In this document: in pieces, positions 39,811-60,848 of the stretch
Position numbering within the stretch: the first letter of the stretch is position 1
How the letters are laid out: each line of letters starts with the position of its first letter
DNA from: an uncultured Chloroflexia bacterium
Lineage (GTDB): Bacteria > Chloroflexota > Dehalococcoidia > DSTF01 > JALHUB01
Assembly (NCBI GenBank): GCA_963703345.1
Contig: OY969814.1
Location: forward strand, 704,001-768,000
Reading direction: 5' to 3'
Length of the DNA stretch: 64,000 nucleotides
Translations under genes and position numbers: made by a program
The notes under the pieces: generated by a model
The model's input: the letters and a program-made list of their open reading frames with translations, nothing else
Told to the model about the DNA's origin: nothing
The model's database searches: none

Positions 39811-39865
39811 GAGCCATATCATCATGTCGGCTGAGCGGGCCAGACGTGCGAAGCGCGGAAGTAGC

Positions 39866-41400: not shown

Positions 41401-41448
41401 TAACGGGGCGCATTATACTTAGGTGGCGGTTGAGAAAGAGGTGGGAAA

Positions 41449-42234
41449 ATGGCTCGGTCAAAGCGTGTGGCGCTAATCTTCGTCGTGTTGGTCGGCTCGG
41501 TCATGCTCGTGTCTGCTTGCACAGAGAATGCAGAGGCGCCGCCGAAGACCCCGACAGCCGTCGCCGCCGCTACCCTGGCGCCTGACGTGACGGTGCAACC
41601 GGGATCGGCCACCATCATCAGTCCGAAAGAGGGCGAGAGAGTGCGCGTGCCGATAACCGTCTCGGGGACCGCCAGTGTTTCTGAAGGGGCTATCGTCGTC
41701 ATCGAAATCCAAAGCACTGATGGCAATCGCACCTACTGCCGCGCATTCACAACGGCCAGCCGAGGCGCCCCCGATACCGGCACTTTTGAAGCAATGCTTG
41801 CGTTTCCTCCTCCGCCTTTTACCCCACCTCTCAGCTTGGGCGCTACAGTGCATATCTTGACCGTCAGCCCCGAAGATGGCAGCAAACAGGAGTTGGCCAG
41901 CGTGCCGTTCGTCATTACCGCCGAAGAGCCGGACGTACTCATCAACTCACCATTGTGCGGTGCTTCGGTGAAGAGCCCCGTCACCATTACCGGCACCGCC
42001 AGCGCCTTCGAAGGGGCGCTGACAGTCTCGGTCAAGGATTGGACCGGCAACGAGATGGCAAGCGCTGACGTCAAAGCCTCGGAGGGCGCACAGGGAAGAG
42101 GTGATTTTTCCCAGGAGCTGAGCTTCTCGCTGTCCGGCGGAATTCAGCCGGGCAGGATCGAGGCGTACAGTCACAGTGCGGAGGACGGCAGCGTCATCAA
42201 CCTCTTCTCCGTGCCGGTCATACTGACGCCGTAG
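41449..42234 (+). CDS. Lipoprotein with two Gmad2-like Ig domains
   Basis: Lipobox VSAC; two (V/I)SP..G..V..P(I/V)T(V/I)(S/T)GTA...EG domains. Confidence 0.75.
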   Translation: MARSKRVALIFVVLVGSVMLVSACTENAEAPPKTPTAVAAATLAPDVTVQPGSATIISPKEGERVRVPITVSGTASVSEGAIVVIEIQSTDGNRTYCRAFTTASRGAPDTGTFEAMLAFPPPPFTPPLSLGATVHILTVSPEDGSKQELASVPFVITAEEPDVLINSPLCGASVKSPVTITGTASAFEGALTVSVKDWTGNEMASADVKASEGAQGRGDFSQELSFSLSGGIQPGRIEAYSHSAEDGSVINLFSVPVILTP

Positions 42235-42240
42235 GCGCAG

Positions 42241-42408
42241 CTACTGCGATCTCTTTAGCCGCACCACGACCGGCGTGACCGTCACGGGGGTCTCCGGGTC
42301 CAGCAGTCACGCGGCGTTGCCGAGCGGCATTGCCACCTCCAGGTAACCGCTACTGTCGATGAGCGCAACCAGATCGTCGCCGTCGCCCTAGGTTGTCGCC
42401 AGTGGAAC
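42241..42408 (-). pseudogene. Fragment of a SAM hydrolase/halogenase (SAM hydroxide adenosyltransferase) C-terminus
   Basis: Minus-strand translation VPLATT*GDGDDLVALIDSSGYLEVAMPLGNAA*LL, with two in-frame stops. Confidence 0.6.
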
Positions 42409-42416
42409 CGGCTGTC

Positions 42417-42519
42417 AATTATGCGCTATTCGGCTAACGCGTGAAGAGTCGATAACTGTGCGTTTTCGTTGGGGGGCTGCAAGTCTAGCGGACAGCGGGG
42501 AGAGCGGGCTGTTTGGGAA
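42417..42519 (+). repeat. Direct repeat 'L', copy 2
   Basis: Homologous to 41297-41400; runs into element R through the shared TTGGGAA core. Confidence 0.92.
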
Positions 42520-42803
42520 GCAGCTGCTCCACCAGTCAAGCTGCGGCTAACCCTTCGAGTGCCGCGAACCCCTTACAACTCCTCCCCCGCTCTGCTATCC
42601 TGACCTCACACCCTTCGGAAGGCCACCCGACGCTATGCACATGACACCCTCGCTCCCGCCCGCTTGCCCGTCCGGGCTCGCCCATCGACGCGCCCCGCCG
42701 CCCCGGCGACTGCGCATTTTTGCGCAACTCCTCAGATTCAAACCGACACCATCCAGATTCAAGCAACAACGCAAAAAATAATTGAATTCAATGGGTCAAT
42801 TAA
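42513..42803 (+). repeat. Dispersed element 'R', copy A (antisense degenerate tRNA-Gly half, sigma70-like promoter, AT-rich palindromic end)
   Basis: ccttacaactcctcccccgctctgctatcctgac...aattgaattcaatgggtcaatta; homologous to the reverse complements of 52956-53199 and 58852-59175. Confidence 0.9.
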
Positions 42804-42929
42804 GGCCGGATTCCCCCTATCATGCCGCAGGCCTGCCCGTAGGGCTTCAGCCCGCGGTGCAGATGAGCCTTCCCTCCCCGATGCCCGCCGCCCTATACTG
42901 GTGCCACCCCATCGACAGGAGGACCATCC

Positions 42930-43811
42930 ATGCTGACAAGGCTGTCTTCGGCCACAAAGGAAGTCGTCATCGGCCAGGGACCCACCGTCCTCATCGGCGA
43001 GCGCATCAACCCAACCGGTAAGAAGAAGCTCGCCGCCGCCCTCATGGAAGGCGACATGGACCTCGTCCGCCTCTCCGCCATCGCCCAGGTCGAAGCCGGC
43101 GCCGACGTCCTCGACGTCAACATCGGCCTCGCCGGCCTCGACCAGGTGAAGGTCCTGCCCATCGCCCTCAAGACCGTCATGGACGCCGTCAACGTGCCCA
43201 TCAGCATCGATAGCAACAACCCGGAGGCCCTCACAGCCGCCCTCAAAGTCTACCGCGGCAAGCCCATCATCAACTCCATCACCGGCGAAGAGAAAGCCAT
43301 GGCCGCCCTCCTGCCGCTCGTCAAAGAGTACGGAACCGCCTTCATCGGCCTCTGCATGGACGACGAAGGCATCCCGACCAGCGCCGACCGACGCGTCGCC
43401 ATCGCCCACAAGATCGTCGACCGCGCCGTCTCGATGGGCATTCCGCAGGAAGACGTAATCGTCGACTGCCTGGTGATGACCGTCGCCACCGACCACACGG
43501 CCGCGGCGATGACTCTGGAGGCCGTCCGGCGCGTGCGCACCGAGATCGGCCAGAACGTGACCGCCGGCGTCAGCAACGTCTCCTTCGGCCTGCCCGACCG
43601 CGACCTGATCAACTCGACCTCCCTGGCCCTGCTCATCGGCGCCGGCGTCAACTGCCCGATCATCGACGTGGCGAAAGCGCGTCCCCTCGTCCTTGCCGCC
43701 GACATGCTGCTCGGCCGCGACGAGTACTCCGCCCGCTACATCAAAGCCTTCCGCGAACGCCAGAAAGCCCTCGAAGCGCAGCAAGCCGCTGAGCAAGCTT
43801 CGCCCCCCTAG
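42930..43811 (+). CDS. Pterin-binding methyltetrahydrofolate:corrinoid methyltransferase (AcsE/MetH pterin-domain type)
   Basis: LIGERINPTGKK, DVLDVNIG, ISIDS, IINS, GVSNVSFGLP. Confidence 0.9.
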   Translation: MLTRLSSATKEVVIGQGPTVLIGERINPTGKKKLAAALMEGDMDLVRLSAIAQVEAGADVLDVNIGLAGLDQVKVLPIALKTVMDAVNVPISIDSNNPEALTAALKVYRGKPIINSITGEEKAMAALLPLVKEYGTAFIGLCMDDEGIPTSADRRVAIAHKIVDRAVSMGIPQEDVIVDCLVMTVATDHTAAAMTLEAVRRVRTEIGQNVTAGVSNVSFGLPDRDLINSTSLALLIGAGVNCPIIDVAKARPLVLAADMLLGRDEYSARYIKAFRERQKALEAQQAAEQASPP

Positions 43812-44037
43812 ACTGACCCACTCGGGAATAACTTCGGGGGATGTGGAGAGGCGGAATCGCCATTCTGTCGCAAGAGGCCGCAGCTCGCTGCTGCCGACGT
43901 TCTCAACCACTAGCTGAGGGATTCATCCCTCAGAACTGTTACCCGTCTCCAGCAATCCGCCGAACAGCCATCGACGGCGTAGACCGCCTCTTCTGGAATA
44001 GTGGGGGAGTGCTGCGGACCTACGTCCGCGGGAGAAA

Positions 44038-46653
44038 CTAGCCTTTGCGGCCCTTCGACTGCGGCCCCTTCGACGGCGGGGCCTTCGCGTTCTTCGTGCC
44101 CTTCGCGCTCTTCCCGTCGCCGCTCTTGTCCGGTTCCGCCGCCTTCTTCTTCCCCTCGGCCGGCGCGCCCTTGTTAGGCGCCTGCCCGACCTCGAAGACC
44201 GATATCGACGCAACCAGGTCGCCCGGCCCGACGCCCATCAGGTGCACGCCCTGCGTCCCGCGTCCCACCGACGAAATGCTGTCGATCCGCGTCCGCAGGA
44301 TGATGCCGGAAGCGGAGATGATCATCAGCTCCTGCATCTCGTTGACAGAGCGCGCCGCCACGACCGGCCCCGTCTTGTCCGTTATCTGATGCGTCACGAC
44401 GCCGGCGCCGCCGCGATGATGGCGCGGGTAGCCGTCGAAAGGCGTCCGCTTGCCGAAGCCGTTCGCCGTCACCGTCAGCAACTGCATCTTCGGCGTCACG
44501 ACCTCCATCCCGACCACGCTCTCGTCCTTGGCGAGTTGCATGCCCCGCACGCCGCCGCTCGCCCGCGACGCCGCCCGCAGCTCCTTGACCGAGAAGCGCA
44601 CCGCCTTCCCGCGATTGCTGACGAGGACGACGTCGTCGTCTTCCGCCACCTGCTTCGCCGTGACCAGCTCGTCGCCCGGCTCCAGGTCCATGCAGATGAG
44701 TCCGGCCCGTCGCACCGACTCGAACTCGGAGAGTGACGTCTTCTTCACCTCGCCGCGTCTGGTGGCCTGCACCAGGTAGTCCTTCTCAAAGCTGCGTACG
44801 CCGACCTGCGCGGTAACGGTGTCGCCCTGGGGCATCTCGATCAGGTTGACCAGCGCGTCACCCTTCGCCTGCCGCTTGGCGTCCGGCAAGTCATACGCCC
44901 GCAACTGGAAGACGCAGCCGCGACCGGTGAAGAAGAGCAGGCTGTCATGCGTGTCCGCCACGAGTAGCCGCAGCACGGCATCGGCCTCCCGCGTCGTCAT
45001 GCCCGTGATGCCACGGCCGCCTCGCCGCTGCAACCGGTACGTGTCGAGCGGGATGCGCTTGATGTAGCCGCGATTGCTCAGCGTGACGACGATCTCCTGG
45101 TGCGGCACCAGGTCCTCCGCCGTCAGCTCCACGAGCTCCTGGTCGATGATGCGTGTCCGGCGCGGGTCGCCGAAGCGCTTCTTGATGTCCTGCGCGTCCT
45201 CTTTGATGAGGTAGTCGATCTTCCGCGGGTTGCCCAGCAGGTCCTCCAGGTAGGCGATCTGCTGGATGATGGCGTTGTACTCCTCCTCGATCTTCTGACG
45301 CTCCAGCCGCGCCAGCCGGCGCAACTGCATGTCTAGCACCGCCTGCGCCTGGCGGTCGCTCAGCTTGAACGGCGCCTTCATCAGCCGTTCCTTAGCGTCC
45401 TCCGCCGACTGCGCCTTGCGAATCGTCTGGATTATCTCGTCCAGGTTCTGAAGCGCCTTCATCAGCCCCTGGAGTATGTGCTCGCGTTCCCTCGCCCGCT
45501 CCAGCTCAAACTGTGAGCGACGCCGAATAACCTCGCGCCGGAAGCCGATATAGTGCTCCAGCACGCGCTTCAGGCTCAACGTCCGCGGCTGGCTGTCGAC
45601 CAGCGCCAGCATGTTTATCGGGAATGACGATTGCATGCCGGTGAAGCGATAGAGCTGGTTCAGCACCTCCTGCGCCTGGCCCGCCCGGCTTAGCTCGACG
45701 ACGATGCGCATTCCGTGCCGGTCCGATTCGTCCCGCAGATCGCTGATGCCGTCGATGCGCTTGCTCCGCGCCAGATCAGCGATACGCTCGACCAGGGACG
45801 CCTTGTTCGTCATGTAGGGCAGCTCCGTGACGATGATCTGCTGCCGGCCGCCGCGCGTCGTCTCCTCGATGTGGGTGCAGGCGCGCATCATGACGCGTCC
45901 GCGGCCGTCGCGGTACGCCTCTCTTATAGCGTCCTCTCGCGCCTCCGCGCCGTCCTTGCGCACTTGCTCGTATCTGAAGATGAAGCCGCCGGTGGGGAAA
46001 TCGGGTCCCTTGACCACGTCCGCCAACTCATCCATCGTCGCGTCCGGCTTCTCGATGAGGCGGCAGACGGCGTCGCAGACCTCGCCCAGGTTGTGCGGCG
46101 GCACGTTCGTCGCCATGCCGACGGCGATGCCGTAGGCGCCGTTGACGAGGAGGTTTGGTAGCCGCGAAGGTAGGACTGTTGGCTCATTGTTCTCAGCATT
46201 GTAGGTGGGCGCGAAATCCACGGTCTCCTTGTCGATGTCGGCGAGCATCTCCTCGGCAGTCGCGGTGAGGCGGGCTTCGGTGTACCGGTAGGCCGCTGGC
46301 GGGTCTCCATCTATGCTGCCAAAGTTCCCCTGACCGTCGACGAGCGGGTAACGAAGCGAAAAGTCCTGCGCCATGCGTACCATCGCCTCGTACACGGGCT
46401 CATCGCCGTGCGGGTGGTACTTCCCCAACACCTCGCCGACAGTCGTAGCGGATTTCCTGTAGGGGGTCCTAGAACTCAGGTGAAGCTCAGACATTGCATA
46501 GAGAATGCGACGCTGTACCGGTTTCAGCCCGTCGCGCACGTCCGGCAGCGCGCGTGACACGATAACGCTCATCGCGTAGTCCAGGTAGGACGCGCGCATC
46601 TCGTCCTCAATCTTGATGGGACGCACGTTGCCAATGCCGGTGTCGGTTGTCAT
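44038..46653 (-). CDS. gyrA: DNA gyrase subunit A
   Basis: [40 protein letters not shown], GyrA-box QRRGGRG. Confidence 0.97.
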
Positions 46654-46781
46654 GTTCCGGCCCTAATGTGGGATTTTCGGCAGCGCCATTGTATCACAAT
46701 CGAATCTAATGGTCTCTCGCCTGTGCATCCTGTGGAGCGACATCCATCGCCCTGCTATACTCCGGCAAGGGAGGCAGTCAC

Positions 46782-47663
46782 GTGACGGCCAAGACTATCG
46801 ATGGGCGGGCAATCTCGCAGGAGATACGCGCGGAGCTGCGCGAGCGCGTGGACGCTCTTAAACGACGTGGCATCACGCCCGGGCTGGCCTTCGTGCTCGT
46901 CGGCGATAACCCTGCTTCGCTCTCCTACGTCGCCTCGAAGAACCAGGGCGCCGCCGAAGTCGGCATCAACTCCCAGACCTTCCAGATTCCCGGCGACGCG
47001 CCCCGGGAGCAGGTCATGGACCTCGTGCGACGCCTCAACGCCGACCCCACCTGGAATGGCATCCTTGTACAGCTCCCGCTGCCGTCATCACTCAGCGAGG
47101 ACGCCGTGATCAACGCCATCGCCGTCGAAAAAGACGTTGACGGCATCCATCCCGCGAACGTCGGCCGGCTCCTGCGCGGCGAGCCCACGTTCAAGCCTGC
47201 GACCCCCGCCGGGGTGCAGCAGCTCCTCATCCGCTCCGGCTACAACCCCGAAGGAAAGCACGTCGTCATTTGCGGCCGCTCCAACATCGTCGGCAAGCCA
47301 CTGGCCGCCATCCTGATGCAGAAGGCGCCAGGGGCCAACGCCACCGTCACCGTTTGCCACACGCGCACGGCGGACCTGGCGAAAATGACGCTTCAGGCGG
47401 ACATCCTTGTCGCCGCGATGGGAGCGGCCCGGGCCATTACGGCCGAGATGGTGAGGGAAGGGACGGTGGTGATCGACGTGGGCAATAACCGGATCGAAGA
47501 CCCGTCGCGAAAAAGCGGCTACCGGCTGGTCGGCGACGTCGACTACGACGCGGTGGCTGAGAAGGCGGCGGCGATAACGCCCGTCCCCGGGGGCGTCGGC
47601 CCTATGACCGTGACCATGCTGCTCTACAACACCGTGATGGCGGCAGAGGGAGGCATCGAGTAG
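46782..47663 (+). CDS. folD: Bifunctional methylene-THF dehydrogenase/cyclohydrolase
   Basis: GILVQLPLP, KDVDG, PATPAG, GRSNIVGKP, TPVPGGVGPMT. Confidence 0.97.
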   Translation: MTAKTIDGRAISQEIRAELRERVDALKRRGITPGLAFVLVGDNPASLSYVASKNQGAAEVGINSQTFQIPGDAPREQVMDLVRRLNADPTWNGILVQLPLPSSLSEDAVINAIAVEKDVDGIHPANVGRLLRGEPTFKPATPAGVQQLLIRSGYNPEGKHVVICGRSNIVGKPLAAILMQKAPGANATVTVCHTRTADLAKMTLQADILVAAMGAARAITAEMVREGTVVIDVGNNRIEDPSRKSGYRLVGDVDYDAVAEKAAAITPVPGGVGPMTVTMLLYNTVMAAEGGIE

Positions 47664-47690
47664 AACATAGACAGCGCGCCAGGTGCTCAC

Positions 47691-47725
47691 AAGAAGGGCG
47701 TCGTCCTTCGGGGCGACGCCCTTCT
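47691..47725. terminator. Hairpin between convergent genes (likely bidirectional terminator)
   Basis: agaagggcgtcgtcc-TTCG-gggcgacgcccttct. Confidence 0.75.
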
Positions 47726-47764
47726 CATCTCAACCGCGCAACAGAGGTGTCGTGTCTCTGTCGA

Positions 47765-50700
47765 CTAAGGACTGTAGGCCGCAGACTCCTGCCCGACCAG
47801 GTTCACCAGGTTGCCCATTCCCAGGCCGGCGTCATAGAGGTGCAACCCCCAATCGGCACCGATTGTCTCCGTCACAAGTGGCCTCGGATCGCCCGGGATA
47901 TTGGTGGGGTCAACCTGCAGCCAATTGGCGCCGCCGGAACTCACGCAGTGGGCCGTGTAGAGACCGGGGAAGGCCACATACGGCGTCGGCCAACCCGACG
48001 GGGGTGGCAGGTAGGGGCCGAGTGACCCAGGGAAAGGAGCGGTGCCGAAGTAGGGCAGCAGTGCGCCGGTTCCTCCTGAAAGCGACGCCGGGTTGGTGCA
48101 CAGCACGTCTTCGGTATTCGGGTCGCCCGGCGTCAGGCCGTTCCCCACCCTGCCAAACATGCTAGTGGGCGGTGGCGGCTCAAGCCAGCTGGAGTAAGCC
48201 ACCACGCAGCCTGTTTGGGTGGTAGACCGGCAGGCTGGAATGTTCTGGAAGTCGCCGCCGGCATCCTGGCCTTTGGCGACCAAGACGTTGCCGCCGAGGA
48301 TCAGGGCCGAGACAAGCTTGGCACGCACCGCCGGGTTGGGGTCGATCTCGTTGTGGACCAGTTGCCTCATCATGAACGACCCTTGCGAGTGGCTGATGAG
48401 GACAACCCCTCGGCCGTTGTTGTAGTTAGCCATATAGTCCTGCCAAGCGGCGAGGACGTCACTGTATGCCAGATCAAAGACCGCCGGCGTAATCCATCCG
48501 AGACTGATCGCGGGGAGCGTGAACTGCCGGTACACCGGGGCGTACATCTTGCACACCTTGGAGAAGTGCGCATACTGGTTGGCGATCGCTATCTCCTCCG
48601 GATCGATGTTCAGATTGGCGTTGGGGGTGAACTGGCTGCTCACGGTCGGGTAGACGAAGAAGCAGTCGATCGGTGGGTCCGGCGTCGGCACCGGTGGTGG
48701 CTCAAGCACAATCGTGCCGTCGGCGTAGATCACGTCGGTGGTAAGATCGGTCACGCAGGGGTTGTCGGCCATCCCGGGGCGGCACAGCCAGACGGGCGCG
48801 GGACCGGCCGGTAGCGGAGTGACCGTATTGGTGGCGGTCGCCGTCGGCGGCCGCGGCGTCGCGGTGAGGGTCGAGGTGGCCGTCGGGGCAGGCGGCGGCG
48901 GCGTTCCTGACGCCCCGCCGGAACCTGCCTGGTCGTCAGGTATGGGCAGGTCGCAGGTGCTGTAGTTGCGACCGAAGACGAACTGGAGGTCCTTGATGTC
49001 GATGTCGTTGTCGGACCACTTGGGCTCCAGGTCGTACCACTGGTCGTAACCGTTCAGGCCGAGTGTCAAGCCGTACCGGAAGGCCTCTGCCTGGTCGTCC
49101 GCAACATCGACCGTGCAGTCGAGGTTGAGGTCACCCTCGAGCATCCGGAGCGTGATGAAGGCGCTACCGCACACCGTGGTGAGCTGGCCGGGGAGGGTAC
49201 CCTGGATCTGCTCGCCCTGGGTGTCGGTAACTTCGCAGTCCTTGTCGGCGATGGTAGTTACCACGCCGTTGTCCTTCGTCGGCCGGAAGTGAGCGGTGTA
49301 GATCAGGTTGGCCAAGTTCGGCGTGATGTAGATCTCTGACACCACGCCGTTCGGGCTGCTGACTGTGCAGCCGGGGTCAACACCCACCTGGCACCCGTTA
49401 GGTCCGGGCTTGTTCTGCGGCACCAACGACCACGTCTGCGTCACCGGGTCGTACACCCAGGCCAACGCATCCTTGGTCACGCAGCCTTCGAGAATCGAGG
49501 TCTCGGTCTGGACGGTGACGAAACAGCCGCCTGCCTCGTTGACGTTAACGACGCGGCCGCCGCTGGTGAGCCAGGCGTTGTCCGGAGCCGTTGACACGGA
49601 GACGAACTGCTTGTCCCAGAAGATCTCGTGCTCCCAGGCGCCGAGTCCCTCAGGAATGTTGTCGGAGTCGTTCGAGTTGTCCTTGTCGAAGATGCCGGTG
49701 ACGTACTCGTCAATCTTCAGGCAGCCCTTGCCATTGGCGGCGAGGGCCTTCGCCGGGTCAATTACGGGCTGGCCCAGGCTGTCCAAAACGACGTGGCCGT
49801 TCGCGTCAAGCAGCCAGCAACCGGCCTTCGTGAGCCACAGGACGGCGCTGTCCTGGACACCCTCCGAGTGAATGTCGGCGTCCTTCTGCATCTTCACGCC
49901 GGGAACCGTAGTGGCCGTCGCCGTGTTCGTCGGCGTGTCGGTGACAGTCGGCGTGTCAGTCGGCGTGTTCGTCGGCGTGTTCGTCGGCGTCTCAGTCGGC
50001 GTGTTCGTCGGCGTGTTCGTCGGCGTCTGCGTCGGCGTTAGCGTCGGCGTGTTCGTGATCGTCGGCGTGTTCGTGTTCGTCTTCGTGGGCGTTGGCGTCC
50101 ACGTCGGCGGCTCGCCCTTGAAGTCCAGCCCGTCGAAGCACCTGTTCAACTCACCTGTGTTGGGCGGGCAGCTTATGTTCTGGTTCGTGCCCTTGTCCGC
50201 CTCGGTGGCTTCGATCACGGTCAGGGTGTCGATGCCCTCTGCCAGGCTCTTGAACGAGATCTCGGCGAGAGGCGCTGCGACTAGGTCGCCCGTGGGCAGG
50301 GTGGGAGTACCGCTCCCCATGAAGCAGCCGAGATAGGCCACGCCCCTAGGACCGCTGGGGTCAAGGTCACAGGTCGGCAGTGCGTTGCCGGAGGCGGTGC
50401 AATCCCAGTTGAGGGAAGTGCCCAGGTTGGGCGAGGTCATCGAGGACGTGCCGGTGTTGGCGTCCGGGTTGGAATCCAAGTTGAAGTCAGTGACTCCGTC
50501 CGTCACGCACTCGTTCAGAGTTCTGTCGTACGACACCTGGAAGTCGAAGGCAGCCGGTGGTCCGTTGGTGCCACCCACCGATGTGCCGGCGCCAACCAGA
50601 CAGACGGCGACCTTGTAGGTTGTGCCAACCGGGTACACAGTGGTGGGGTAATCGCCGGGGACTTGCGGCGTTACCGGGTTGCAGTCCTTGCTGCCGTTGG

Positions 50701-51427
50701 TGACGACGCCATCGGTGACGTCCATGTCCAGAGCGATGTGGACATCACCGGCGTCGCAGACCAGGTCCTGGTTGATGTCGCAGGCCGGATCCGGGATCTT
50801 CCAGGCGGCGTCCAGAATGGCGCCCCAGGGGGTAACCGCGGTCCCGTCAAGGTTGCCACACGCCAGGTGCTGGATACGCGCGATCGCGGTGTAGTCCTGC
50901 GCGGGGTTGAAGCCCGGCAGCGTGGAGATTCCCACGCTCTTGATGCCCGAGAGGTAGCCAGTGTACGGGGCCTTCGTGACCGTGTTGATCACGACGTCGT
51001 AGCCGCCCGTGACCGCCAGGTTGCCGAGCGTGAGGCTGTTGTCCGCGTTCTGCGTGACGCCGTGGAAGTACGCGGTCGGGAGGTCCAGGAACAGGCCCTG
51101 GTCAGCCGCGGCCGCGTGGTACACGCCCATGCCTACGACGTCCTGTATCAGGCAGTCATTCGCGCCAAAGTAGAAGACTCCCGGCAGGTTCGGGTAGAAA
51201 GGCGTAAGGCCCCATGCAGTTTCCTGCGAGATCACGATGCCGCCCCCGGCGTCCAACATCGAGATGGCGCCGGTTACACCGCTCGCGGCAGCGCCCGGGA
51301 TGGACGACACCATGACCGTGGTCGGCGTGACCGCCTTGGCCGAGCCGCTGTGGCCGAAGAGCGAGAATCCACCAAGGATCAGGCCCATGACCGAGACGGC
51401 TGTTATGACTAGTAACGAACGCTTCAT
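47765..51427 (-). CDS. Large secreted protein: two cohesin-like domains, T/P linkers, dockerin-like domain, C-terminal DUF3089-type alpha/beta hydrolase
   Basis: ATG at 51427 (MKRSLLV, GGAGG RBS). [10 protein letters not shown]...LAEISFK and [12 protein letters not shown] (cohesin-like); [13 protein letters not shown]...[10 protein letters not shown] (dockerin-like); [30 protein letters not shown] (DUF3089-like). Confidence 0.75.
49915..50100 (-). repeat. Thr/Pro/Asn coding linker repeats
   Basis: Repeated gtcggcgtgttc units encoding TPTN. Confidence 0.85.
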
Positions 51428-51713
51428 TTGTCCGTCACCTCCCCCGATCACTTCGAGCGGACGTCTGCGGGGCCACGGCTCGCCATCACAGCGACGAATA
51501 TAAAGAACTGCAAGCCAAGCGCAAGGCGCCGGCCTACCGATTCTCTCACGCACGGGCGGGGAACTAATGCTGAACCACCAGTGTCGCGAGTATAAGTCGC
51601 GTTTTCAGATTTGTCAAGTGGATTCGTTGGAATGCCCAGAATCTGTCCCGAGATAACAAGAAAGGCCTGGACAGCTCCAGACCTTCTACCCGAACGGCTC
51701 ACTTCACCGCAGA

Positions 51714-52556
51714 TTATTCCTCGAATCCCTCCTCCGCGTCATCCTCGCCTTCCGTGGCCTCCTGGTAGTCTTGCAGCGTCATGTCCCCTTCGCTCGCCAC
51801 CGTCTCGGACTCCCACTCTTCGCCCTCTTCCGGCTCCTCCGCCGCGACCTCTTCCTCCTCCAGTTCGCGTCGCACCAGCCTGTCCTTAACGTAAGGCCGC
51901 ACCGTCTCGCCGCTGACTGCCGGGAAGGAAGGTCGGCCCTGCTGGCTGGGATGCTGGTAGATCTCGCGAATGATGACCCGTTGGTCCGACAAACTCGCCA
52001 CCGCCACGACGTAACGGTTACCCCCGTCCATAAGACGCGAGAGGCGTAGCCCCAGCTTCGGCTCGAGTTGCCCGACGTACTCGCCGTCCAGGGTGACGAC
52101 CGCCAGCGTGTTGTCCCGCGGCCTCAACCCCAGCGTATCGCCAGCCGTCAGGCGGCCCAGGGCCTCCGGTGCGACAAATCGCAGATTCGCGATGCCTGTC
52201 TTGCCGGTCTCGGCGATGAACAGAGCGGGGTCTATCCGGCGCGGCCCGTCGGCCTGCGCCGCCGCCGCCTTCGCTCGCACTTCCAGCCGTTCGAGGTTCT
52301 TGCGGGCTATGCTGTTCAGAGGCTCAAGCTCCAGCGCTCTCTCGTAGGCCATGCGCGCATCCTCGTACTTGCCCATCTCCATCAGCGCCTTGCCCAGCCG
52401 GTTGTAGGCATCGACGTCCGACGGGAACATGCTAATTAGCGAGCGGTTGACTGCCACCGCCTCTTTCCAGCGACTCTCCAGAGCCAACTGAATCGCCTGC
52501 TCCACGCGCTGGCGTCTCAGCCGAGTCGTCTCGCCGGTCTGGTAGTTCATCACCAT
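51714..52556 (-). CDS. Tetratricopeptide repeat protein with acidic C-terminal tail
   Basis: DAYNRLGKALMEMGKYEDARMAYERALELEPLNSIA TPR; FIAETGKTG; start at MVMNYQ. Confidence 0.85.
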   Translation of the reverse strand: MVMNYQTGETTRLRRQRVEQAIQLALESRWKEAVAVNRSLISMFPSDVDAYNRLGKALMEMGKYEDARMAYERALELEPLNSIARKNLERLEVRAKAAAAQADGPRRIDPALFIAETGKTGIANLRFVAPEALGRLTAGDTLGLRPRDNTLAVVTLDGEYVGQLEPKLGLRLSRLMDGGNRYVVAVASLSDQRVIIREIYQHPSQQGRPSFPAVSGETVRPYVKDRLVRRELEEEEVAAEEPEEGEEWESETVASEGDMTLQDYQEATEGEDDAEEGFEE

Positions 52557-52744
52557 CGCATCATCCCATCTACCTATTGTAGCTCGGCTATCTTGTGCCG
52601 AACTTGAGTGTTTCTGAAGAAACTGTGAGAAAAACACTCGATAGCGGGCGTGCGGCCATCGCACCCTCGATTCAAGAGCGACAAATACCGGAATTCCAGC
52701 CATTTGTCAAGCAGGAGGGGTTATTGGATGTTCGAGAAGGAGGC

Positions 52745-52822
52745 TGGTCGGGGTGGGCAGATTTGAACTGCCGACCTCACGGTCCCGAACCGTGCGCTCT
52801 AGCCTAACTGAGCTACACCCCG
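52745..52822 (-). tRNA. tRNA-Pro (anticodon CGG)
   Basis: CGGGGTGTAGCTCAGTTAGGCTAGAGCGCACGGTTCGGGACCGTGAGGTCGGCAGTTCAAATCTGCCCACCCCGACCA; full cloverleaf with encoded CCA. Confidence 0.97.
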
Positions 52823-52955
52823 CGACCAAAGAAGCGTCGCGATCTCCCGACCGTTCGGACGGGAGGGCGCCGGCGTCAACGATGATAGCAGACGGCCGCG
52901 AAGGTGTCGAGGCGGAACCGGCGCTCGGGGTGGGAGGCGATGGCCTGCGGTGTCG

Positions 52956-53199
52956 CCTAATTGACCCATTGAATTCAATTGTTTCTTGCGTTGTCTTCTG
53001 AATCTGGATGATGTCGGTCTGAATCTGCGAAAGTGGCGCAAAAGTGCGCGTTTTGGGGCGTCGCGGAAAGCGGAGGCGAGGTGTCCCAGATCCGGACAAG
53101 GTGAACGGGCGGACGGAGTGCATGGCGTCGAAGGCCTTTCGGGAGTTGTCGGAGGTGAGGATAGCAGAGGCGAGGGGGATTTGGAAGCGGCTGGTGGCA
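52956..53199 (-). repeat. Dispersed element 'R', copy B (lacks the tRNA half; abuts the ATPase stop codon)
   Basis: Reverse complement ctctgctatcct...atgcac...cagattcagaccgacatcatccagattc...aattgaattcaatgggtcaatta aligns with copy A. Confidence 0.88.
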
Positions 53200-55683
53200 C
53201 TAAGGAGACTGCCGCTTCTTGAGGTTCCAAGACGTGCCCCCGCAATTGCATCGAACTGCTTCTTGGACTCGGCTCTCAGGCGAAACAACGACATGCAACA
53301 TTCCCTCGCATTGAGCACATCTGAACAGGTTCCAGAGGTCGTGAAATGCGTCCGCAACAACCCGGAAGTCCGCAGGGCTCAAGTTGTGCCAATTGTTATA
53401 GTGCACGCTAGCGTCAACCTGCCACATGTCAGCTCCAGATCTGCGCTTGACATCCGCAGCGGTCGCCTCAAGGACACCGAGACTCTGGATCCGGTCCCTG
53501 TCGTCCCACGAGTTCGCAGCGTCCTTTGCCGTCCTGACTAATGCACCGTGACGCTCTAACGCGGGGGGTAACAGGTCACCCAGCTCCCAGTTGGCACGAG
53601 GCTTGCACACAACTCGTGCCAAAAGAGATTCGCACGCGAGGGTAAAGAACTGCTCGGACGCCCGGCGCAGTTCAGAGGCCGCATCGGGGATCTGGTTGCG
53701 CTCGATATGTTGCTCTATGTGCAGCCACGTGTCGAGATTATTGTCCCATTTGGGTCCGGTCTGAACATTCCAGCCGAAGAACTCGACGAGATTGCGTTGC
53801 GCGACTACACCCTCACTCCTCAATGAGAAAGCCCAACTCCTATCGTGTGTCGTGATAAGGAACTGTCTGTCAGGGAACTCCGTAGCGAGCACTCTACAGA
53901 TCTCTCTCCTGTGACCCTCGTCGACCGACGTCACTATGTCGTCCAAGACGACTAGATCGATGAGGCCTGCGGTGAGCCGCTCCGCGAGGGCCAGGTAAAG
54001 GCACAAGCCCATGCTGTCCTGATGCCCTTCGCTGTGAAGGGCCTGAGGCGGATATTGTCCAAGACCGTAAAAGTCGACCGCCAGTTTGAGGGCTGCACCA
54101 GCCGGTTCGAGTTTAGCATCGAATGTGCCCTCGTCGTCTTTGTGCAATTGACGGTAGAGCGCGACGAAGCGGTCCTTGATTTCGTCATAGAGTTTGCTTA
54201 GGACTTCGTTTCGGGCAGCCTCAAAACATTCAAGAAGCACGCCCGCTTTGCCTTCAGCCGCTGTTATGCGCGCAAGGTAGGCCTCGGAGCTTTCGAGGAC
54301 CTTTGCATTGCTTTCCAATGTGGTCAGAGTATCCCAGGCGGTCCACTCTGGCGGTGTCTCCGGGCAACAACTGCTTACGGCATCTTCAACAAGGCCCACC
54401 GTTGCGGCGGCTTCAGGGGGGGCAAACAATCGCATGACGGCAAACTCGCTCTCTGAAAGCCGCTCATACTCTTCCACTGGAGACTCCAGCGCGGTCAGGA
54501 ATTCATTGAGTTTCGATTGCCACGTAACTAAAGGCTGACATTTCGTCTCGATGCCCAAGTTGCGCGCTGGTGCTAAGAGAACCTGTATATTGGCAGCAGC
54601 CACTTGCACTGGCCCAACGAGAGAGTCGCTCAGTTCGTCAATCGTCTTCTGTTGGTCCGCAGCGAGCCTCGCTTGAGAAAGCCTCCGTTCTAGGTGCTTG
54701 CGCAGTTCGTCCTCGGGCCAAGGCGTTTCGCATAGGGGGCAAGCGCCGCTCTCATCGATAAGGTCGACGCCCATTTCGATCAACTGACGTACTGTCAAGT
54801 CACGGCGCATCTGCGCATCTTCTCGGACCTGATTGACGGTTGCCAGAAGATTGCGCTGGGCCGTCACTAGGCGCTCTGCCGAATCGCCGGGATCCATCAA
54901 CGGCCTGAGACTAGCGATAGCGCGTTCAACTGCTTTGCGATCGATTGGTCTGCTCTCCGAGCTCGGCTTTGCTGGTGGCACCAGTGCGCCTTTCAGAGTT
55001 GTGCTGGAGAGTCGCTCTATCGCTTGGCCGCCCAAAGCGACCCGGAGTTCGTTAGCGCGCTTCAGGACAGCTTCACCGTTGTAGAGTGGTAGCCCAAGAG
55101 TGGCTGCGATGGTTGCCCGCCCGCGGCCAACCTCTTTTTTCAGCGATGATATTTGGTCTTCGAGTTGGCGTCTTGCGTTGACCAGTGCACGGCGAACTTC
55201 CTCTACCTCTGAAATGTTCAGCAACCTTTGAACTTGCTCGCCTCGCTCCCCTGCACGGGATGTGACGTATCTGTGCAGCTCCCGGCGGGTAAGAACATAT
55301 TGTCCCCTCTTCGCAACAGATAGGACTCTGTCAACGAAGGGCCGAACCGCCTCATCGCAGTCCAGGCTACGTGGCGAAGCCATGTTTCGTGAGATCGTTA
55401 CCTCGATCGGTTGGGAATCGCCCTGTATCAGAAGCCGGGCTCTCACAGTGGCTTGTGATAGCTCGTGGCCCGCATGGGGTCCGTGTTCCTCAAGCGAGAC
55501 GCCTTCTGTGCCAGCGCCGGTAAGCCGCGATATCTGGCCTGTGAGCAAGAAATCAAGGGCGTCAACAACGCCACTCTTCCCGCATCCGTTGGGTCCCCAG
55601 ATGACAAGGTTTCTGCCTTCCGCCTGAAGCGGTAGTGCGCATATCCCGCGAACGTTCTCGACCGCCAGCTCAAGGAGTCTCAT
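53200..55683 (-). CDS. Rad50/SMC-like ABC ATPase with zinc hook and C-terminal extension (RloC-like candidate)
   Basis: Walker A GPNGCGKS, coiled coils, CPLC hook, signature HSEGH, Walker B VVLDD, ITTHD; C-terminal LRRASE...VHYNNW plus CAQC/CNC; atypical codon usage. Confidence 0.8.
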   Translation of the reverse strand: MRLLELAVENVRGICALPLQAEGRNLVIWGPNGCGKSGVVDALDFLLTGQISRLTGAGTEGVSLEEHGPHAGHELSQATVRARLLIQGDSQPIEVTISRNMASPRSLDCDEAVRPFVDRVLSVAKRGQYVLTRRELHRYVTSRAGERGEQVQRLLNISEVEEVRRALVNARRQLEDQISSLKKEVGRGRATIAATLGLPLYNGEAVLKRANELRVALGGQAIERLSSTTLKGALVPPAKPSSESRPIDRKAVERAIASLRPLMDPGDSAERLVTAQRNLLATVNQVREDAQMRRDLTVRQLIEMGVDLIDESGACPLCETPWPEDELRKHLERRLSQARLAADQQKTIDELSDSLVGPVQVAAANIQVLLAPARNLGIETKCQPLVTWQSKLNEFLTALESPVEEYERLSESEFAVMRLFAPPEAAATVGLVEDAVSSCCPETPPEWTAWDTLTTLESNAKVLESSEAYLARITAAEGKAGVLLECFEAARNEVLSKLYDEIKDRFVALYRQLHKDDEGTFDAKLEPAGAALKLAVDFYGLGQYPPQALHSEGHQDSMGLCLYLALAERLTAGLIDLVVLDDIVTSVDEGHRREICRVLATEFPDRQFLITTHDRSWAFSLRSEGVVAQRNLVEFFGWNVQTGPKWDNNLDTWLHIEQHIERNQIPDAASELRRASEQFFTLACESLLARVVCKPRANWELGDLLPPALERHGALVRTAKDAANSWDDRDRIQSLGVLEATAADVKRRSGADMWQVDASVHYNNWHNLSPADFRVVADAFHDLWNLFRCAQCEGMLHVVVSPESRVQEAVRCNCGGTSWNLKKRQSP

Positions 55684-55867
55684 GATCGGTGCCTCCCTTT
55701 TTCAACAATGCGACCAGTAGCTCGGGCTTGCGAAACCCGCCCGAACCGGCCAGATCCACTAAGGCCTCGATCTCGCTGGGTTGGAAGACTTTGCGACGTT
55801 CAACTAGATCAAGCGTCTTAGCTAGGATTTGGGAGGGGAGGGATGGAGGAATGTCTTGATCAGCCAT
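55670..55867 (-). CDS. Small protein translationally coupled to the ATPase
   Basis: AAGGAGA RBS; 65 aa; its 3' end overlaps the ATPase start. Confidence 0.7.
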   Translation of the reverse strand: MADQDIPPSLPSQILAKTLDLVERRKVFQPSEIEALVDLAGSGGFRKPELLVALLKKGGTDHETP

Positions 55868-56112
55868 GATTTAGTCTCCTTCGGTTCATCATGAGCCGAA
55901 CCGCCGTGCGGATCTCCCAGATTATACCACTGGTTCTGGGACGATGAAGCCAGCGAAAGGAGGAGGGAGCGGAGGTCGGGCGGTTGCGGCTTGCGCGCTG
56001 TGAGGAGCGAAGGGCGGGTGCAGGCCGTGAAACTTAGGGGATTGCCGCCGGAGCGGTCCAGCGGCAATCGGCGTCAGCGCGACGAGCAGTAGCCCGCCTT
56101 GCGGCGCGGCAT

Positions 56113-56382
56113 CTACATGTGCTGTTCGTGCGCCTTGCGGATATCCTCCGGCGTGAACTTCGTCAACGGCGTGACCTTCGTCCGGCTGCGACGGCTGGCG
56201 GGCACGAAGCCCAACGCGCTCGACTCGCTGTCCGCCTGCACTATCGCCACGGCGCGGTGCTCCCCGGATAGACAGCCAAATTCGAGGGTGTCAAAGACCT
56301 TCGGGTCTTCCTTGATTATTGTGTCCATCTCCAGCAGACACTCTTCGGGCGTATGGGTGGACTCTATCAGGTAATCCGACAT
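56113..56382 (-). CDS. Small hypothetical protein
   Basis: AAGGAG RBS; YLIESTHTPEEC...FGCLSGEH. Confidence 0.7.
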   Translation of the reverse strand: MSDYLIESTHTPEECLLEMDTIIKEDPKVFDTLEFGCLSGEHRAVAIVQADSESSALGFVPASRRSRTKVTPLTKFTPEDIRKAHEQHM

Positions 56383-56631
56383 TTCAGTACTCCTTCTTTT
56401 CTCAGTCTCTTACCGACCTTTCAATATAGAGCGGCGGGATGCCGGAAGCGTGATTCGCCCGTTGACGCCCGTGAAGGAAGCGTGAAGAACGCCCGACCGA
56501 CGCGCCCGGCGCGGCCGCCGCTGTAACGGCGTTCGACGGCGGCCGTTCTTCTTTAGTGGGAGAGGCAGCAGCCTATCCCAGGACAGTCTGTTGAGGCGCT
56601 GAACCGAGGGCATGCCTCCCTGTTGGGGGCG

Positions 56632-56700
56632 TGGCGGCAAGCTGCGGCGGGTCGCTTGGTCACCGAGACCCTCGGCGAGCCAGTGGTGAAACCGGCAACA
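56632..56700 (+). ncRNA. Candidate c-di-GMP-II-like riboswitch
   Basis: GCAAGCTG...GGGTC/GACCC stem with a TGGTCACC loop, followed by GAGCCAGTGGTGAAACCGGC (possible TCACC/GGTGA pseudoknot). Confidence 0.4.
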
Positions 56701-56801
56701 GCGGATCCGAGAGATCGGGTCGGGGAGTTGCCGGTTTCATGTTCTTTCCACTGCCGGGGTCAGCGCTAAAGAGACTGCGACGGCTCGCGCCTCGCCTTCT
56801 G

Positions 56802-57494
56802 ATGCCGCGGGGTCTTCTTGGCCTCCTCGCCCTGTTCGTCTTCCTGCCCCTGCTGACGGCCGCCCAGCCGGTCTGCCAGGTGCAACAGGCCCGCGACGGC
56901 TACGGGGTCGAGATCGTGATGGACGGCCAGACCTGGGACGACGCCAGCCTGAACGCTATCATCGACGCACTGGGAAAGCTGCCGCCGCACGTCGTCAACC
57001 AGCTCGGGAGCCGCGTGTACGGCCGCCTCTACATCCTGTCCAACGACGAGTCGCGCACCATGTCGGGGAGCAAGGTCTACTCCAGCGGCGCCAACTTCTA
57101 CTCAAACAACGACGGTCGCAACGAGCTGGTCCTTTATCCAGACCAGGGCACCCTGACCGTCCTCCACGAGCTCGGTCACGCCTACCAGCTTCGGATGGTC
57201 CCGCCCGGTCGCTATGCCTGGGTCTTCTTTCAGGAGGAGATGCGCGATTTCATGGCCGCCACCGGCTGGCGCCTCCTCAGCAGCGACGCCGAAGTGGCCG
57301 CGGCCGTCGACCAGACGCAGCTCAGCTTCGCCTACGACGGCCCGCAGGTCTGGCAGTTTATGTCGAACAACGACCCGCTGGAGGACTACGCGAACTCCTT
57401 CGCCCTCTTCTTCTACGACCCGCAGCAGCTCCAGCAGCTCTCGCCCGCCCGCTACCAGTGGATGCAGGCCAACGTCGCCACCGAGGCCCGCTGA
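56802..57494 (+). CDS. Secreted zinc metallopeptidase (HExxH...E)
   Basis: Signal peptide; VLHELGH; downstream PLEDYANSF; start uncertain. Confidence 0.75.
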   Translation: MPRGLLGLLALFVFLPLLTAAQPVCQVQQARDGYGVEIVMDGQTWDDASLNAIIDALGKLPPHVVNQLGSRVYGRLYILSNDESRTMSGSKVYSSGANFYSNNDGRNELVLYPDQGTLTVLHELGHAYQLRMVPPGRYAWVFFQEEMRDFMAATGWRLLSSDAEVAAAVDQTQLSFAYDGPQVWQFMSNNDPLEDYANSFALFFYDPQQLQQLSPARYQWMQANVATEAR

Positions 57495-57498
57495 CGAG

Positions 57499-58770
57499 CT
57501 AGGGCAGCGTCTTCTCCAGCAGGTGCGGGTCCGCCCGCGGTCCGACCAACGCCACAGCAACGTTGTCGCGGCGGAACAGACGCTTCGCTACGCGCCGGAC
57601 GTCGTCGCTGGTGATCGCCTGTAGCTTGGCGACCACGTCCTCGATCTGCTCGATCTCGCCCATCGTGACCAGGTTCTCGCCCGTCCACTGCGTCAGCGCC
57701 ATCGTCGTCTCCAGGCCAAGGCGGAAGTTGCCCACGGTGAAGTCGCGGGCGCGCGTCATCTCATCCTCCGGCACCGGCTCGTCGACAAGCTTGAACACCT
57801 GCTCCAGGATGACCTTGCCGGCCTCCTCCACCTTCTCCGGGCTGACGCCGGCGCTGACCGCCATGGAGCCCGTGTCGCGGTGGCGGCTGACCGACGACCC
57901 GATGGAGTAGGCAAGCCCGCGGCGCTCGCGCACCTCTTTGAAGAGGCGGGAGCTCATGCCGCGACCGAGCAGCGTGTTGAGGATGGTGAGGGCGTAGCGG
58001 TCCGGGTCGGTGCGGGAGAGGGCGCGCAGTCCGTACGCCAGGTTCGACTGGTCAGTCTCCCGCGACTCGACCTGCACGCGGTCCGGCGGCAGGCCCGGCG
58101 CCGCGGCCGCGATGGACGGGAGCGAGCGGCTCTCCAGATCGGCCGCCCTCTCCGCGATGAGCGCCAGCACCTGCTCGGCCGTCGTATTGCCGGCGACGGC
58201 GACGACGATGTTCTCCGGCGCGTACCACCTCTCGCGGTGCTCCAGGAAGTCGTCGCGCCTGATCCCCTCGACCGTCTCCTCCGTGCCCGCGATGGGCCAG
58301 CCGATGGGTTGGTCGCCGTAGCAGGCGCGGGAGAGCAACTCCGCCGTCCAGGCTGACGGCTGGTCGTGCGTGCGACGTATCTCCTGCTCAACCACCGTGC
58401 GCTCGCGGTCGATCTCGACGCTGTCTAGGAGCGGGTCGCGCACCATGTCCGCCAGGACGTCGATAGCCAGGTCCAGGCGGTCGTAGGGGACGTGCGCCCA
58501 GTAGCCGGTCATCTCCTTGTCGGTGAAGGCGTTGAGCGCGCCGCCGGCGCCTTCGATGGCCTCGGAGATCGCCTGGGCGCTGGGCCGCTTGGCGCTGCCC
58601 TTGAAGAGCATGTGCTCCAGATAGTGGCAGATGCCGTTGACGCGTCGGTCCTCCATGCGGGAGCCGACGCCGACGAAGATGCAGACGTTGGCCGATTGCG
58701 CCGTCGGCATGGGCGTGGTGACGACGCGGAGTCCGTTGTCCAGGGTATCGATCTGCCAGGTGGTGGTCAT
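57499..58770 (-). CDS. M16 (pitrilysin) family peptidase
   Basis: HYLEHMLFKG (HxxEH), LNAFT, MSSRLFKEVRERRGLAY. Confidence 0.95.
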   Translation of the reverse strand: MTTTWQIDTLDNGLRVVTTPMPTAQSANVCIFVGVGSRMEDRRVNGICHYLEHMLFKGSAKRPSAQAISEAIEGAGGALNAFTDKEMTGYWAHVPYDRLDLAIDVLADMVRDPLLDSVEIDRERTVVEQEIRRTHDQPSAWTAELLSRACYGDQPIGWPIAGTEETVEGIRRDDFLEHRERWYAPENIVVAVAGNTTAEQVLALIAERAADLESRSLPSIAAAAPGLPPDRVQVESRETDQSNLAYGLRALSRTDPDRYALTILNTLLGRGMSSRLFKEVRERRGLAYSIGSSVSRHRDTGSMAVSAGVSPEKVEEAGKVILEQVFKLVDEPVPEDEMTRARDFTVGNFRLGLETTMALTQWTGENLVTMGEIEQIEDVVAKLQAITSDDVRRVAKRLFRRDNVAVALVGPRADPHLLEKTLP

Positions 58771-58851
58771 GGGTCCCTCCAAAGACGAGAGTGGTGTTCC
58801 TCCTCATCATAATGCAGAGAGGCGTGCGCAGTCATGCCGCCGCAGCCGCGT

Positions 58852-59175
58852 CTAATTGACCAATTGAATTCAATTGTTTTTCGTGGTGCTTTCCGAACCT
58901 GAACGAGGGTGGTGTGAATCCCTACGGGCAGGCTGGGAATGGCGCGAAATGGCGTCGAAAAGGGGCGAAACGGGGCCGAAAGGGGTCGCTGGCGCGTCGA
59001 CGTGCGCTGTGGCCCTACGGGCGGGTTGGCCGGGGTGAGGTTGTTGGTGCATGGGGTTGGCGGCCTCCGAAGGCTCTCTCAAGTCAGGATAGCAGAGCGG
59101 GGGAGGAGTTGTAAGGGATTGGTGACACCCGGAAGGGTGCGCGGCAGCCCAGTTGATAGAGCATCCGCTTCCCAA
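58852..59175 (-). repeat. Dispersed element 'R', copy C (with degenerate tRNA-Gly(CCC) 5' half at 59138-59175 on the + strand)
   Basis: Shares the exact segment ccttacaactcctcccccgctctgctatcctgac and the aattgaattcaat.ggtcaatta end with copy A. Confidence 0.9.
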
Positions 59176-59347
59176 TTACACCTCCCGAATGCCTCTAAGC
59201 CTCCGTGCGTTTAGGTACGGCGACAGCGAATCTGGCGATGCCTCTTAGCCAAAAGCAGATGCTCCCTTTTTGTTCGTCGCTGGCAAACGGACTACCGACC
59301 GGTTCCGCGTATTGTAGGTGCATTTCCCGCTCCCTGTCGCGGCGGCA

Positions 59348-59376
59348 TTGACAAAATCTCCAAGCAGGCATAGAAT
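59348..59376 (+). promoter_or_regulatory. Sigma70-type promoter of the SDH-PIN operon
   Basis: TTGACA-17 bp-TAGAAT. Confidence 0.75.
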
Positions 59377-59491
59377 ACGCAAACGCAGGATCCGAACGGA
59401 GTTCGGATCCTGCGTGGAACTCCTCGCCAAGTGTATTTGCCAGTCACACCCGCGCTCTTCCTAACCGACAGAATCAGAGGCAAGAGGGAAT

Positions 59492-60592: not shown

Positions 60593-60596
60593 TGGC

Positions 60597-60821: not shown

Positions 60822-60848
60822 GTAATCGCCCGAAGTATCGCAGTACCC

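Follow-up and report, generated by a model that had tools for sequence, protein, structure and literature searches.

Three stretches of non-coding DNA, here called A, B and C, in a 64,000-nt window of an uncultured Dehalococcoidia genome (G000, a 2.28-Mb single contig; the window is G000:704001-768000) are gene-less members of a dispersed mini-element. The promoter end of each copy faces variable, foreign-looking DNA, and the AT-rich 3' end faces fixed core genes. We conclude that the element is real, that it is not derived from a tRNA, and that it is an undescribed variant of a probably packaging-derived mini-element; no description of it was found in a literature search that lacked most subscription papers.

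Results

Anatomy and distribution of the element

Copy A aligns with B at 72.5% identity over 255 nt (E 1.9e-26) and with C at 73.4% over 188 nt (E 1.8e-20), and none of the three holds an open reading frame (ORF), in agreement with a sequence-only reading of the window that had described three homologous non-coding copies. The starts of the element itself are at 42559, 53200 and 59128, which leaves outside it the tRNA-like segments that the reading had counted into copies A and C. To look beyond the window we used profiles built from 12 G000 copies and 25 copies of relatives, that is, of the genomes compared with G000 (G001, G002, G003 and so on; the family set comprises 18 genomes). The G002 locus L159, a promoter pattern match only, was left out. 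The profiles located 13 3' ends and 8 promoter ends in G000, and two copies with an older type of end were reached through their protein, giving 15 copies in total, with no recombinase in or beside any of them. The family is multi-copy and non-autonomous, as had been supposed.

The element measures 250-800 bp. At its 5' end a GTGNCAY-type box is followed after 7 bp by a -35 hexamer, an extended -10 and a variable middle; the AT-rich 3' end, opposite the promoter, has two CAGATTC boxes (-69 and -48 relative to the terminus), then an A-tract and finally the motif AATTGAATTCAATKGGTCAAT. The two boxes and the end motif are nearly invariant, while the middle varies freely; the 3' end is kept across copies and the 5' extent varies, the promoter being the best-kept 5' feature. 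CAGATTC pairs at the element spacing occur seven times in the genome, always in elements, against 0-1 occurrences at eight other spacings, and in one subtype both boxes are inverted in place. There are no terminal inverted repeats, the two ends being unrelated. The copies gave no match in Rfam and showed no conserved RNA structure (0 of 7 pairs covary), and the end motif had no exact match in viral contigs. Of the 15 copies, 8 are followed on the 3' side by a co-oriented gene and 7 by a convergent one.

The end motif is present in 6 of 8 same-genus genomes and 7 of 17 genomes of the family, and in none of 43 genomes of other families; the promoter end reaches 8 of 8 and 11 of 17, respectively. 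Closest protein matches were records of Dehalococcoidia or Chloroflexota. Element sites persist across species that are 82-92% identical. One 99-bp piece of the 3' end lies in frame, as 33 codons, within an imuB-like Y-family polymerase gene (L004:9110-9205); this insert is present in G000, G002, G003 and G008 and absent from 5 of 5 more distant genomes, and comparison of filled with empty alleles revealed microhomology joins and no target-site duplication. Judged by pairwise identities, the ends are mosaic: the nearest neighbour lies at the same site for 18 of 28 5' ends and 15 of 28 3' ends.

Full-length copies carry a gene with a terminase-like motif

Copies A, B and C are assigned to the family as gene-less members because G001 and G005, at their orthologues of site A, show the same promoter end, a repeat-filled leader, a gene and the same 3' end. 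The gene encodes about 100 aa in relatives and 105-122 aa in four G000 copies, one further G000 copy being a remnant. Its product carries the motif GAPKGNLNA(L/I)KTG. All 15 aligned proteins match the NCBIfam small terminase (TerS) model NF040601 weakly (best E 3.3e-6) and 14 of them match PHROG 1889, likewise weakly, and a GAPxGNxNAxK motif is common to these proteins and those encoded next to the large terminase gene terL (hhalign probability 97.6 over 29 columns). Structure prediction returned an unstructured N terminus followed by four helices, with a predicted template modelling score (pTM) of 0.41. For the five closest gene pairs, out of 28, the ratio of nonsynonymous to synonymous substitution rates (dN/dS) is 0.14-0.42.

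A profile search with the protein gave 408 representatives at E 0.001. Family matches occur in 21 of 151 genomes of the class, and the closed genome G140 has 20 dispersed copies. We kept the 61 Chloroflexota-titled loci among 80 protein-family loci: terL lies just downstream in eight and a major capsid gene in two, and a tyrosine integrase was found in none. The motif ORF overlaps the start of terL in G155 and that of the portal gene in G080, while no G000 copy has terL directly 3' of the element gene. Viral contigs yielded 22 matching loci, in nearly all of which the match is confined to the motif region. A long gene follows immediately at five of them, and three short Chloroflexota-like ORFs are located 0.6-1.3 kb before a large terminase. 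Scanning 80 of 107 called neighbours of family loci (E 1e-25) returned one IS30 transposase and no recurrent mobility gene. Separately, a 2.5-kb mini-island at tRNA-Lys in G074 (L129:6790-9305) combines a possible replication gene, an integrase, a terminase-motif ORF and hairpins, and is a possible minimal satellite.

The element promoter resembles those of a host head cluster

G000 has a cluster of capsid, scaffold-like, adaptor, portal and terL genes at 617-647 kb, reminiscent of a gene transfer agent (GTA), and terL is present in 17 of the 18 family genomes and intact in most. A promoter of the box type precedes the terL operon in G000 and in 9 of 15 loci of relatives, two of the misses being loci cut short. 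The terL-operon promoters carry an SOS-like site, a type of site known as a LexA box; lexA of G000 has a similar site. Our first promoter pattern was drawn up after both kinds of promoter had been seen, and we therefore tested the resemblance further, by spacing and with trained models. A GTGNCAY box stands exactly 7 bp before a -35 at 18 sites, whereas any other spacing between 2 and 13 bp gives 0-4 sites. Eleven of the 18 are elements, three are head-cluster promoters and one precedes a gene found inside the G001 cluster. A box model trained on the cluster promoters of eight relatives placed the G000 cluster promoters 1st, 2nd and 4th of 2,648 candidates, and the eleven element promoters at ranks 6-36.

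Within clusters the end motif was matched once, by an insertion that precedes the G001 capsid gene. Box promoters were also seen before a gene for a 345-aa protein of no Pfam family (L007:10447-11498) and before an orphan gene at G000:663814-664381, whose homologue lies in the G001 head cluster. The island that splits the G000 portal gene measures 14 kb and has a serine recombinase (L123:12800-18600, L124:4400-20000).

Variable DNA lies on the 5' side

The promoter end faces accessory DNA at A, B and C alike, as the sequence-only reading had noticed of the three copies, and the pattern extends to the rest of the family. Scored with our own hexamer coding measure of host-likeness over 2 kb per side, the 5' flank is the less host-like in 14 of the 15 G000 copies (the 5' limit of one is approximate), and in 11 of 12 when A, B and C are set aside; the 5' side is also the lower in GC in 13 of 15. 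Among relatives we counted the 19 loci having both ends and 900 bp on each side, dropping the others. Synteny with G000 holds for the 3' flank at 18 of these loci, against 2 for the 5' flank; when flanks could match anywhere in G000 the counts were 18 and 4. These genomes are kin, so the counts overstate independence. The polarity is real, with foreign-looking DNA 5' and a fixed core side 3'.

Sites A, B and C

The features of the three sites are collected in Table 1; island limits are approximate. At site A the element is present in 6 of 6 same-genus genomes fetched, and wherever a contig extends over the cargo, this differs from that of G000. Three relatives have an empty site B and three a filled one. 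Site C is empty in two, has the element in one and has cargo without an element in three; the site C cargo of G002 and G008 (L063:8900-9604, L057:7756-9354) is bounded by a 9-bp direct repeat overlapping a -35 hexamer. The expectation that cargo would be swapped between strains is thus upheld at the level of species, by unlike cargo at orthologous sites.

Table 1. Features of sites A, B and C (window coordinates)
Feature	Position	Strand	Remarks
Element copy A, ORF-less	42559..42806	+	GTGNCAY-type box 42559-65; -35 42573-78; extended -10 42593-601
Copy A, 3' part			CAGATTC boxes 42733 and 42754 (21 bp apart); terminal motif 42780-802
Element copy B, ORF-less, without tRNA half	52954..53200	-	box 53194-200; terminal motif 52958-80
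Copy B, CAGATTC boxes	53019-27 and 52998-53006		
Element copy C, ORF-less	58849..59128	-	box 59122-28; terminal motif 58853-75
Variable island, site A	39135..42868	.	three relatives rejoin the shared backbone at 39120-39134
Cargo ORF, 170 aa, of no identified family	39298..39810	+	
Cargo NHL/YVTN beta-propeller surface protein	39866..41143	-	relatives of the protein lie 5' of elements elsewhere
Second core (41394-400) and island arm, without tRNA half	41291..41400	-	86% over 110 nt to the first
Cargo Gmad2 lipoprotein gene	41449..42234	+	58% identical to a copy in a core setting elsewhere in the genome
SAM hydroxide adenosyltransferase gene, 3' fragment, captured with the Gmad2 gene	42235..42393	-	71% to G000:1793489-1793694
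Left island arm of the 5'-fragment tRNA-Gly family	42411..42512	-	77% over 125 nt to G000:2237096-2237217, E 2.8e-18
Degenerate tRNA-Gly(CCC) 5' half at A	42513..42550	-	24/30 identity; core 42513-19; outside the element
Variable island, site B	52915..56035	.	upstream of tRNA-Pro; empty in G001, G005, G006
Cargo SMC-like ATPase, 827 aa	53200..55683	-	weak LmuB/PtuA-type defence matches; stop abuts the element
Variable island, site C	58842..61393	.	a 75-bp spacer in G005, 195 bp in G001
Degenerate tRNA-Gly(CCC) 5' half at C	59138..59175	+	27/30 identity; core 59169-75; outside the element
Cargo SDH-type serine protease and PIN-domain genes	59492..61298	+	low GC

The Gmad2, NHL/YVTN, SDH protease and PIN assignments of the sequence-only reading were borne out. 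What it had called an ATPase pair at B is a single SMC-like ATPase with one Walker A motif plus a 65-aa ORF, and its HEPN-like gene at site A has no Pfam or PADLOC match, with Atlas leads all below 0.9. Defence genes are frequent among element neighbours, and in the species compared, NHL-protein genes occur on the 5' side of elements at five distinct sites. Comparison of site A with public contigs, each run covering at most a quarter of the words, gave no informative joint, and we make no claim about habitat.

Elsewhere in the window, folD and a gene for a 1,262-aa DUF3089 protein (46782-51553) form another variable insert, without an element, between gyrA and a TPR gene; it is absent at this place in G001, G005, G006 and G010. 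The window also holds the non-homologous end-joining genes Ku and LigD (14460-18160) and two riboswitches, c-di-GMP-II-GAG (56583-56706, +) and cobalamin (37776-37911, -).

A tRNA-Gly half accompanies a few copies

The tRNA-like segments at A and C are indeed degenerate 5' halves of tRNA-Gly(CCC). Scored with the 30-mer of the tRNA 5' half that ends at the anticodon loop, they reach 24/30 and 27/30, levels of at least 24 being attained by 4 of 20,000 random 75-nt genome windows, with none at 20-23. Copy B scores 12/30 and has no half. Site A of G006 scores 25/30, and the other 32 of the 35 copies in this series lie at 11-16. A fourth half-bearing copy, outside that series and at another site in G007, scores 24/30. 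The half accompanies four copies in 18 genomes and is lacking from 13 of the 15 in G000; it is also missing from the G003 orthologue of C and, among the six A copies of relatives, from five. Half-less copies are as polar as the rest (11 of 12 with A, B and C set aside), and the claim that the family is tRNA-derived does not survive these counts. A pattern search of the 18 family genomes gave 24 matches, comprising tRNA genes, two left attachment (attL) sites beside their tRNA, the four copies and one coding match (G000:175466), which we took as chance because it lies inside a coding gene.

In all four half-bearing copies the core lies 38-40 nt from the element boundary, its 7 nt are unchanged, and three kinds of DNA follow beyond it. 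A and C diverge right after TTCCCAA, as had been seen. This core marks the breakpoints of these four copies, although as a general landing site for the family, the other part of the claim, it is not supported. At A the core is followed by an island arm, which matches the integrase-bearing island at 1464494 more weakly (72%, E 0.004) than the island in Table 1; at C, DNA past the core matched no arm in G000. The window has no match to a tyrosine or large serine recombinase, in line with the earlier observation that no integrase is present. A search near tRNA-Gly(CCC) for a tyrosine integrase had been suggested, and an intact one occurs in the island G000:1464485-1470266, at tRNA-Gly(TCC) rather than tRNA-Gly(CCC), where a decayed island of the same 5'-fragment family has no integrase. 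The half at A is an attL scar of this tRNA-Gly island family, whose integrase is elsewhere in the genome. No right attachment (attR) site or tRNA 3' half closes islands A or C, nor was a restored tRNA gene with an integrase found at the other end.

The four half-bearing copies are alike in their 5' ends (1.3% of random quartets are as high) and not in their 3' ends, which fits a likely single fusion of the tRNA half with one 5' end that then spread, half included, by recombination. At A the core-plus-arm unit is repeated, between the captured Gmad2 segment and the NHL gene, which suggests that a tRNA-Gly integrase likely still recombined at the core at times. A divergent position of the element beside the native tRNA-Gly(CCC) gene was rejected, as no tRNA-Gly gene or attL locus examined has an element match; in G001 and G005 site A is on the tRNA contig, about 5 kb off and co-oriented.

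Other tRNA fragments were noted. Seven dispersed tRNA-Gly(CCC) 3' halves, most far from the gene, lie at G000:C1:8437, 1028567, 1034301, 1062704, 1308652, 1910844 and 2277374. Tandem and dispersed tRNA-Val(TAC) 3' halves (G000:C1:1252877-1259653; 1919367, 1920561, 1981987), about 1.2 kb apart with small genes between and no integrase nearby, resemble a cassette array. The integrase-less 5'-fragment island at tRNA-Gly(CCC) (L011:3080-7660; G000:2237080-2241657) encodes a signal peptidase and secreted proteins, and fused to its arm is a 3' fragment of typA in inverted orientation; tandem islands after tRNA-Gly(CCC) at L047:11902-16418 contain an integrase, a ParB-methyltransferase and a second terL-like gene.

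Discussion

We tentatively propose, as the likeliest reading though still short of an even chance, that packaging of the DNA 5' of the mini-element starts at the element, which would also anchor the recombination of that DNA, and that the element arose from the front of the host's GTA-like packaging regulon. The small protein, produced by the few intact copies, would bind to every copy at its AT-rich end and its CAGATTC boxes, spaced 21 bp apart, and would bring in the large terminase of the host. Cleavage would take place close to the 3' end, and packaging would proceed across the element towards the cargo. After transfer, the fragment might recombine at a copy already present in the recipient or enter by microhomology, Ku and LigD being present; this would renew the 5' side and keep the 3' side as it was. 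Packaging from the 3' end together with recombination would account for the fixed 3' ends, the variable 5' extent and the exchange of cargo. A wider version, which we regard as unlikely, holds that Dehalococcoidia aim a GTA-like particle at hot spots through dispersed terS-plus-pac mini-elements co-regulated with a domesticated head cluster, that 5' defence and surface genes are preferentially packaged and swapped, and that in some copies a tRNA-Gly att core allows island integrases to load new cargo.

Several observations weigh against the proposed packaging role. The G000 cluster is broken, with two frameshifts in terL and a portal gene split by an island. An intact element gene is missing from 11 of 15 G000 copies, and dN/dS is 0.37-1.5 in the remaining, distant gene pairs. 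The protein does not reach the curated cut-off of NF040601 (25 versus 120 bits for the query), its likeness to terL-adjacent proteins is limited to 29 columns, it has no predicted helix-turn-helix (HTH), and no significant fold match was found in BFVD or PDB, which is not proof of a new fold. Because a full 20-nt model with spacer and -35, trained in reverse on relatives' elements, ranks the cluster promoters 24th, 133rd and 167th of 227, the link between element and cluster is one of box and spacing, not of overall sequence. The SOS-like site of cluster and type II promoters is missing from A, B and C, no end motif stands beside terL in 16 family loci, and site C cargo occurs without an element in relatives. 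Finally, the usual direction of packaging, from terS to terL, is opposite to the one proposed.

The main rival is passive anchoring, which we consider rather unlikely, though it deserves to be taken seriously. The copies would then be decayed promoter-plus-terS scars of a packaging module, with no present packaging role and rare spread by illegitimate recombination; foreign DNA would turn over next to them because a repeat in many copies offers homology to incoming DNA, whereas little change is tolerated in the core promoters and gene ends of the 3' side. Mosaic ends, the joins of the imuB insert, the pile-up of other repeats and tRNA fragments at the same places, the broken terL of G000 and element-free cargo at site C all speak for such scars; near-invariant -69/-48 boxes and end motif around a free middle, purifying selection in close gene pairs and the 20 dispersed copies of G140 speak against decay. 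We think it improbable that the element is instead a non-autonomous one-ended transposon, mobilised in trans by a rolling-circle enzyme, as in IS91/ISCR-like elements, or by one of another kind, which would begin at the 3' terminus and frequently run past the 5' terminus into flanking DNA. This would suit the 3'-anchored truncations, the lack of target duplication and the confinement of cargo to the 5' side, but G000 has no Y1 transposase or reverse transcriptase (the search for Y2 enzymes had no working positive control), the neighbour scan turned up a single IS30 gene, sites persist across species, and the gene and promoter point to packaging. A retro-element origin was rejected for want of a reverse transcriptase in G000.

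The capture model of the sequence-only reading, with tRNA-Gly-derived att pads filled by a tRNA-Gly integrase in trans, is very improbable for the family as a whole: only two of the 15 G000 copies carry the half, and four do across 18 genomes; half-less copies are equally polar, and islands A and C are not closed. In its favour are the constant distance and unchanged core of the four copies with different DNA beyond, the repeat at 41291-41400 and the existence of a cognate integrase, and it may apply to the subset at A and C. We also see little probability that the unit is a regulatory or defence gene, with the element ends as its control sites, whether by serving as a mobile promoter of the gene that follows or by producing a decoy TerS that blocks packaging by phages or GTAs. 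The well-kept promoter, a protein without a predicted HTH and the frequent defence neighbours agree with it; the near-even orientation of the next 3' gene and the lack of covarying RNA structure do not, and polarity and 3'-only copies are left unexplained. The mobile-promoter role in particular was rejected on the missing orientation bias. Should the packaging proposal prove true, start elements that steer a host particle to defence and surface islands would amount to directed gene transfer and would explain island turnover at fixed spots without an integrase. With or without a packaging role, the element is a marker of variable islands in this uncultured lineage.

Comparison with known systems

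Phage satellites of the SaPI/PICI type (Staphylococcus aureus pathogenicity islands and phage-inducible chromosomal islands) have their own TerS and pac site, and lateral transduction of defence islands has been described (PMC12829572). The element likewise has a small terminase-like gene, an SOS-like site in some promoters and defence cargo along the proposed packaging direction. It differs in having no integrase, replication genes or att pair, in its size of 250-800 bp, in its many, mostly gene-less copies per chromosome and in a promoter box common to a host cluster. The Rhodobacter capsulatus GTA has a TerS-like small terminase without an N-terminal HTH, and a 2019 report (PMC6854486) holds that GTAs take up DNA at random and that no discrete packaging start sites were known for them. 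A conserved host head cluster, with terL in nearly all family genomes, and a TerS-like protein without an N-terminal HTH are shared with that system, whereas the candidate start sites here are dispersed and polar, and the host cluster is a putative GTA.

Islands that displace a tRNA 5' fragment are known but rare, making up 159 of 3,919 islands in the Islander report (PMC4383910). The tRNA half, the anticodon-loop core and the arm at A, with an intact member at tRNA-Gly(TCC), belong to this type; unlike it, the scars are at least 0.7 Mb from the cognate tRNA, degenerate, fused to another element and not closed by an attR.

Miniature inverted-repeat transposable elements and Correia/ERIC-type repeats form a further comparison class. 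Putative mobile promoters (PMC3575422) can be set beside them. With all of these the element shares its shortness, its multiple intergenic and promoter-bearing copies (one copy lying in frame in a gene) and its non-autonomy, but it has no terminal inverted repeats or target duplication, its ends are asymmetric, its parent gene is terminase-like and it shows no orientation bias. Integrons, lastly, resemble it in having a fixed platform with cargo changing on one side, and at A a repeated core-plus-arm unit stands between two cargo genes; the element differs from them in lacking an adjacent integrase and attC-type repeats and in a promoter directed away from the cargo.

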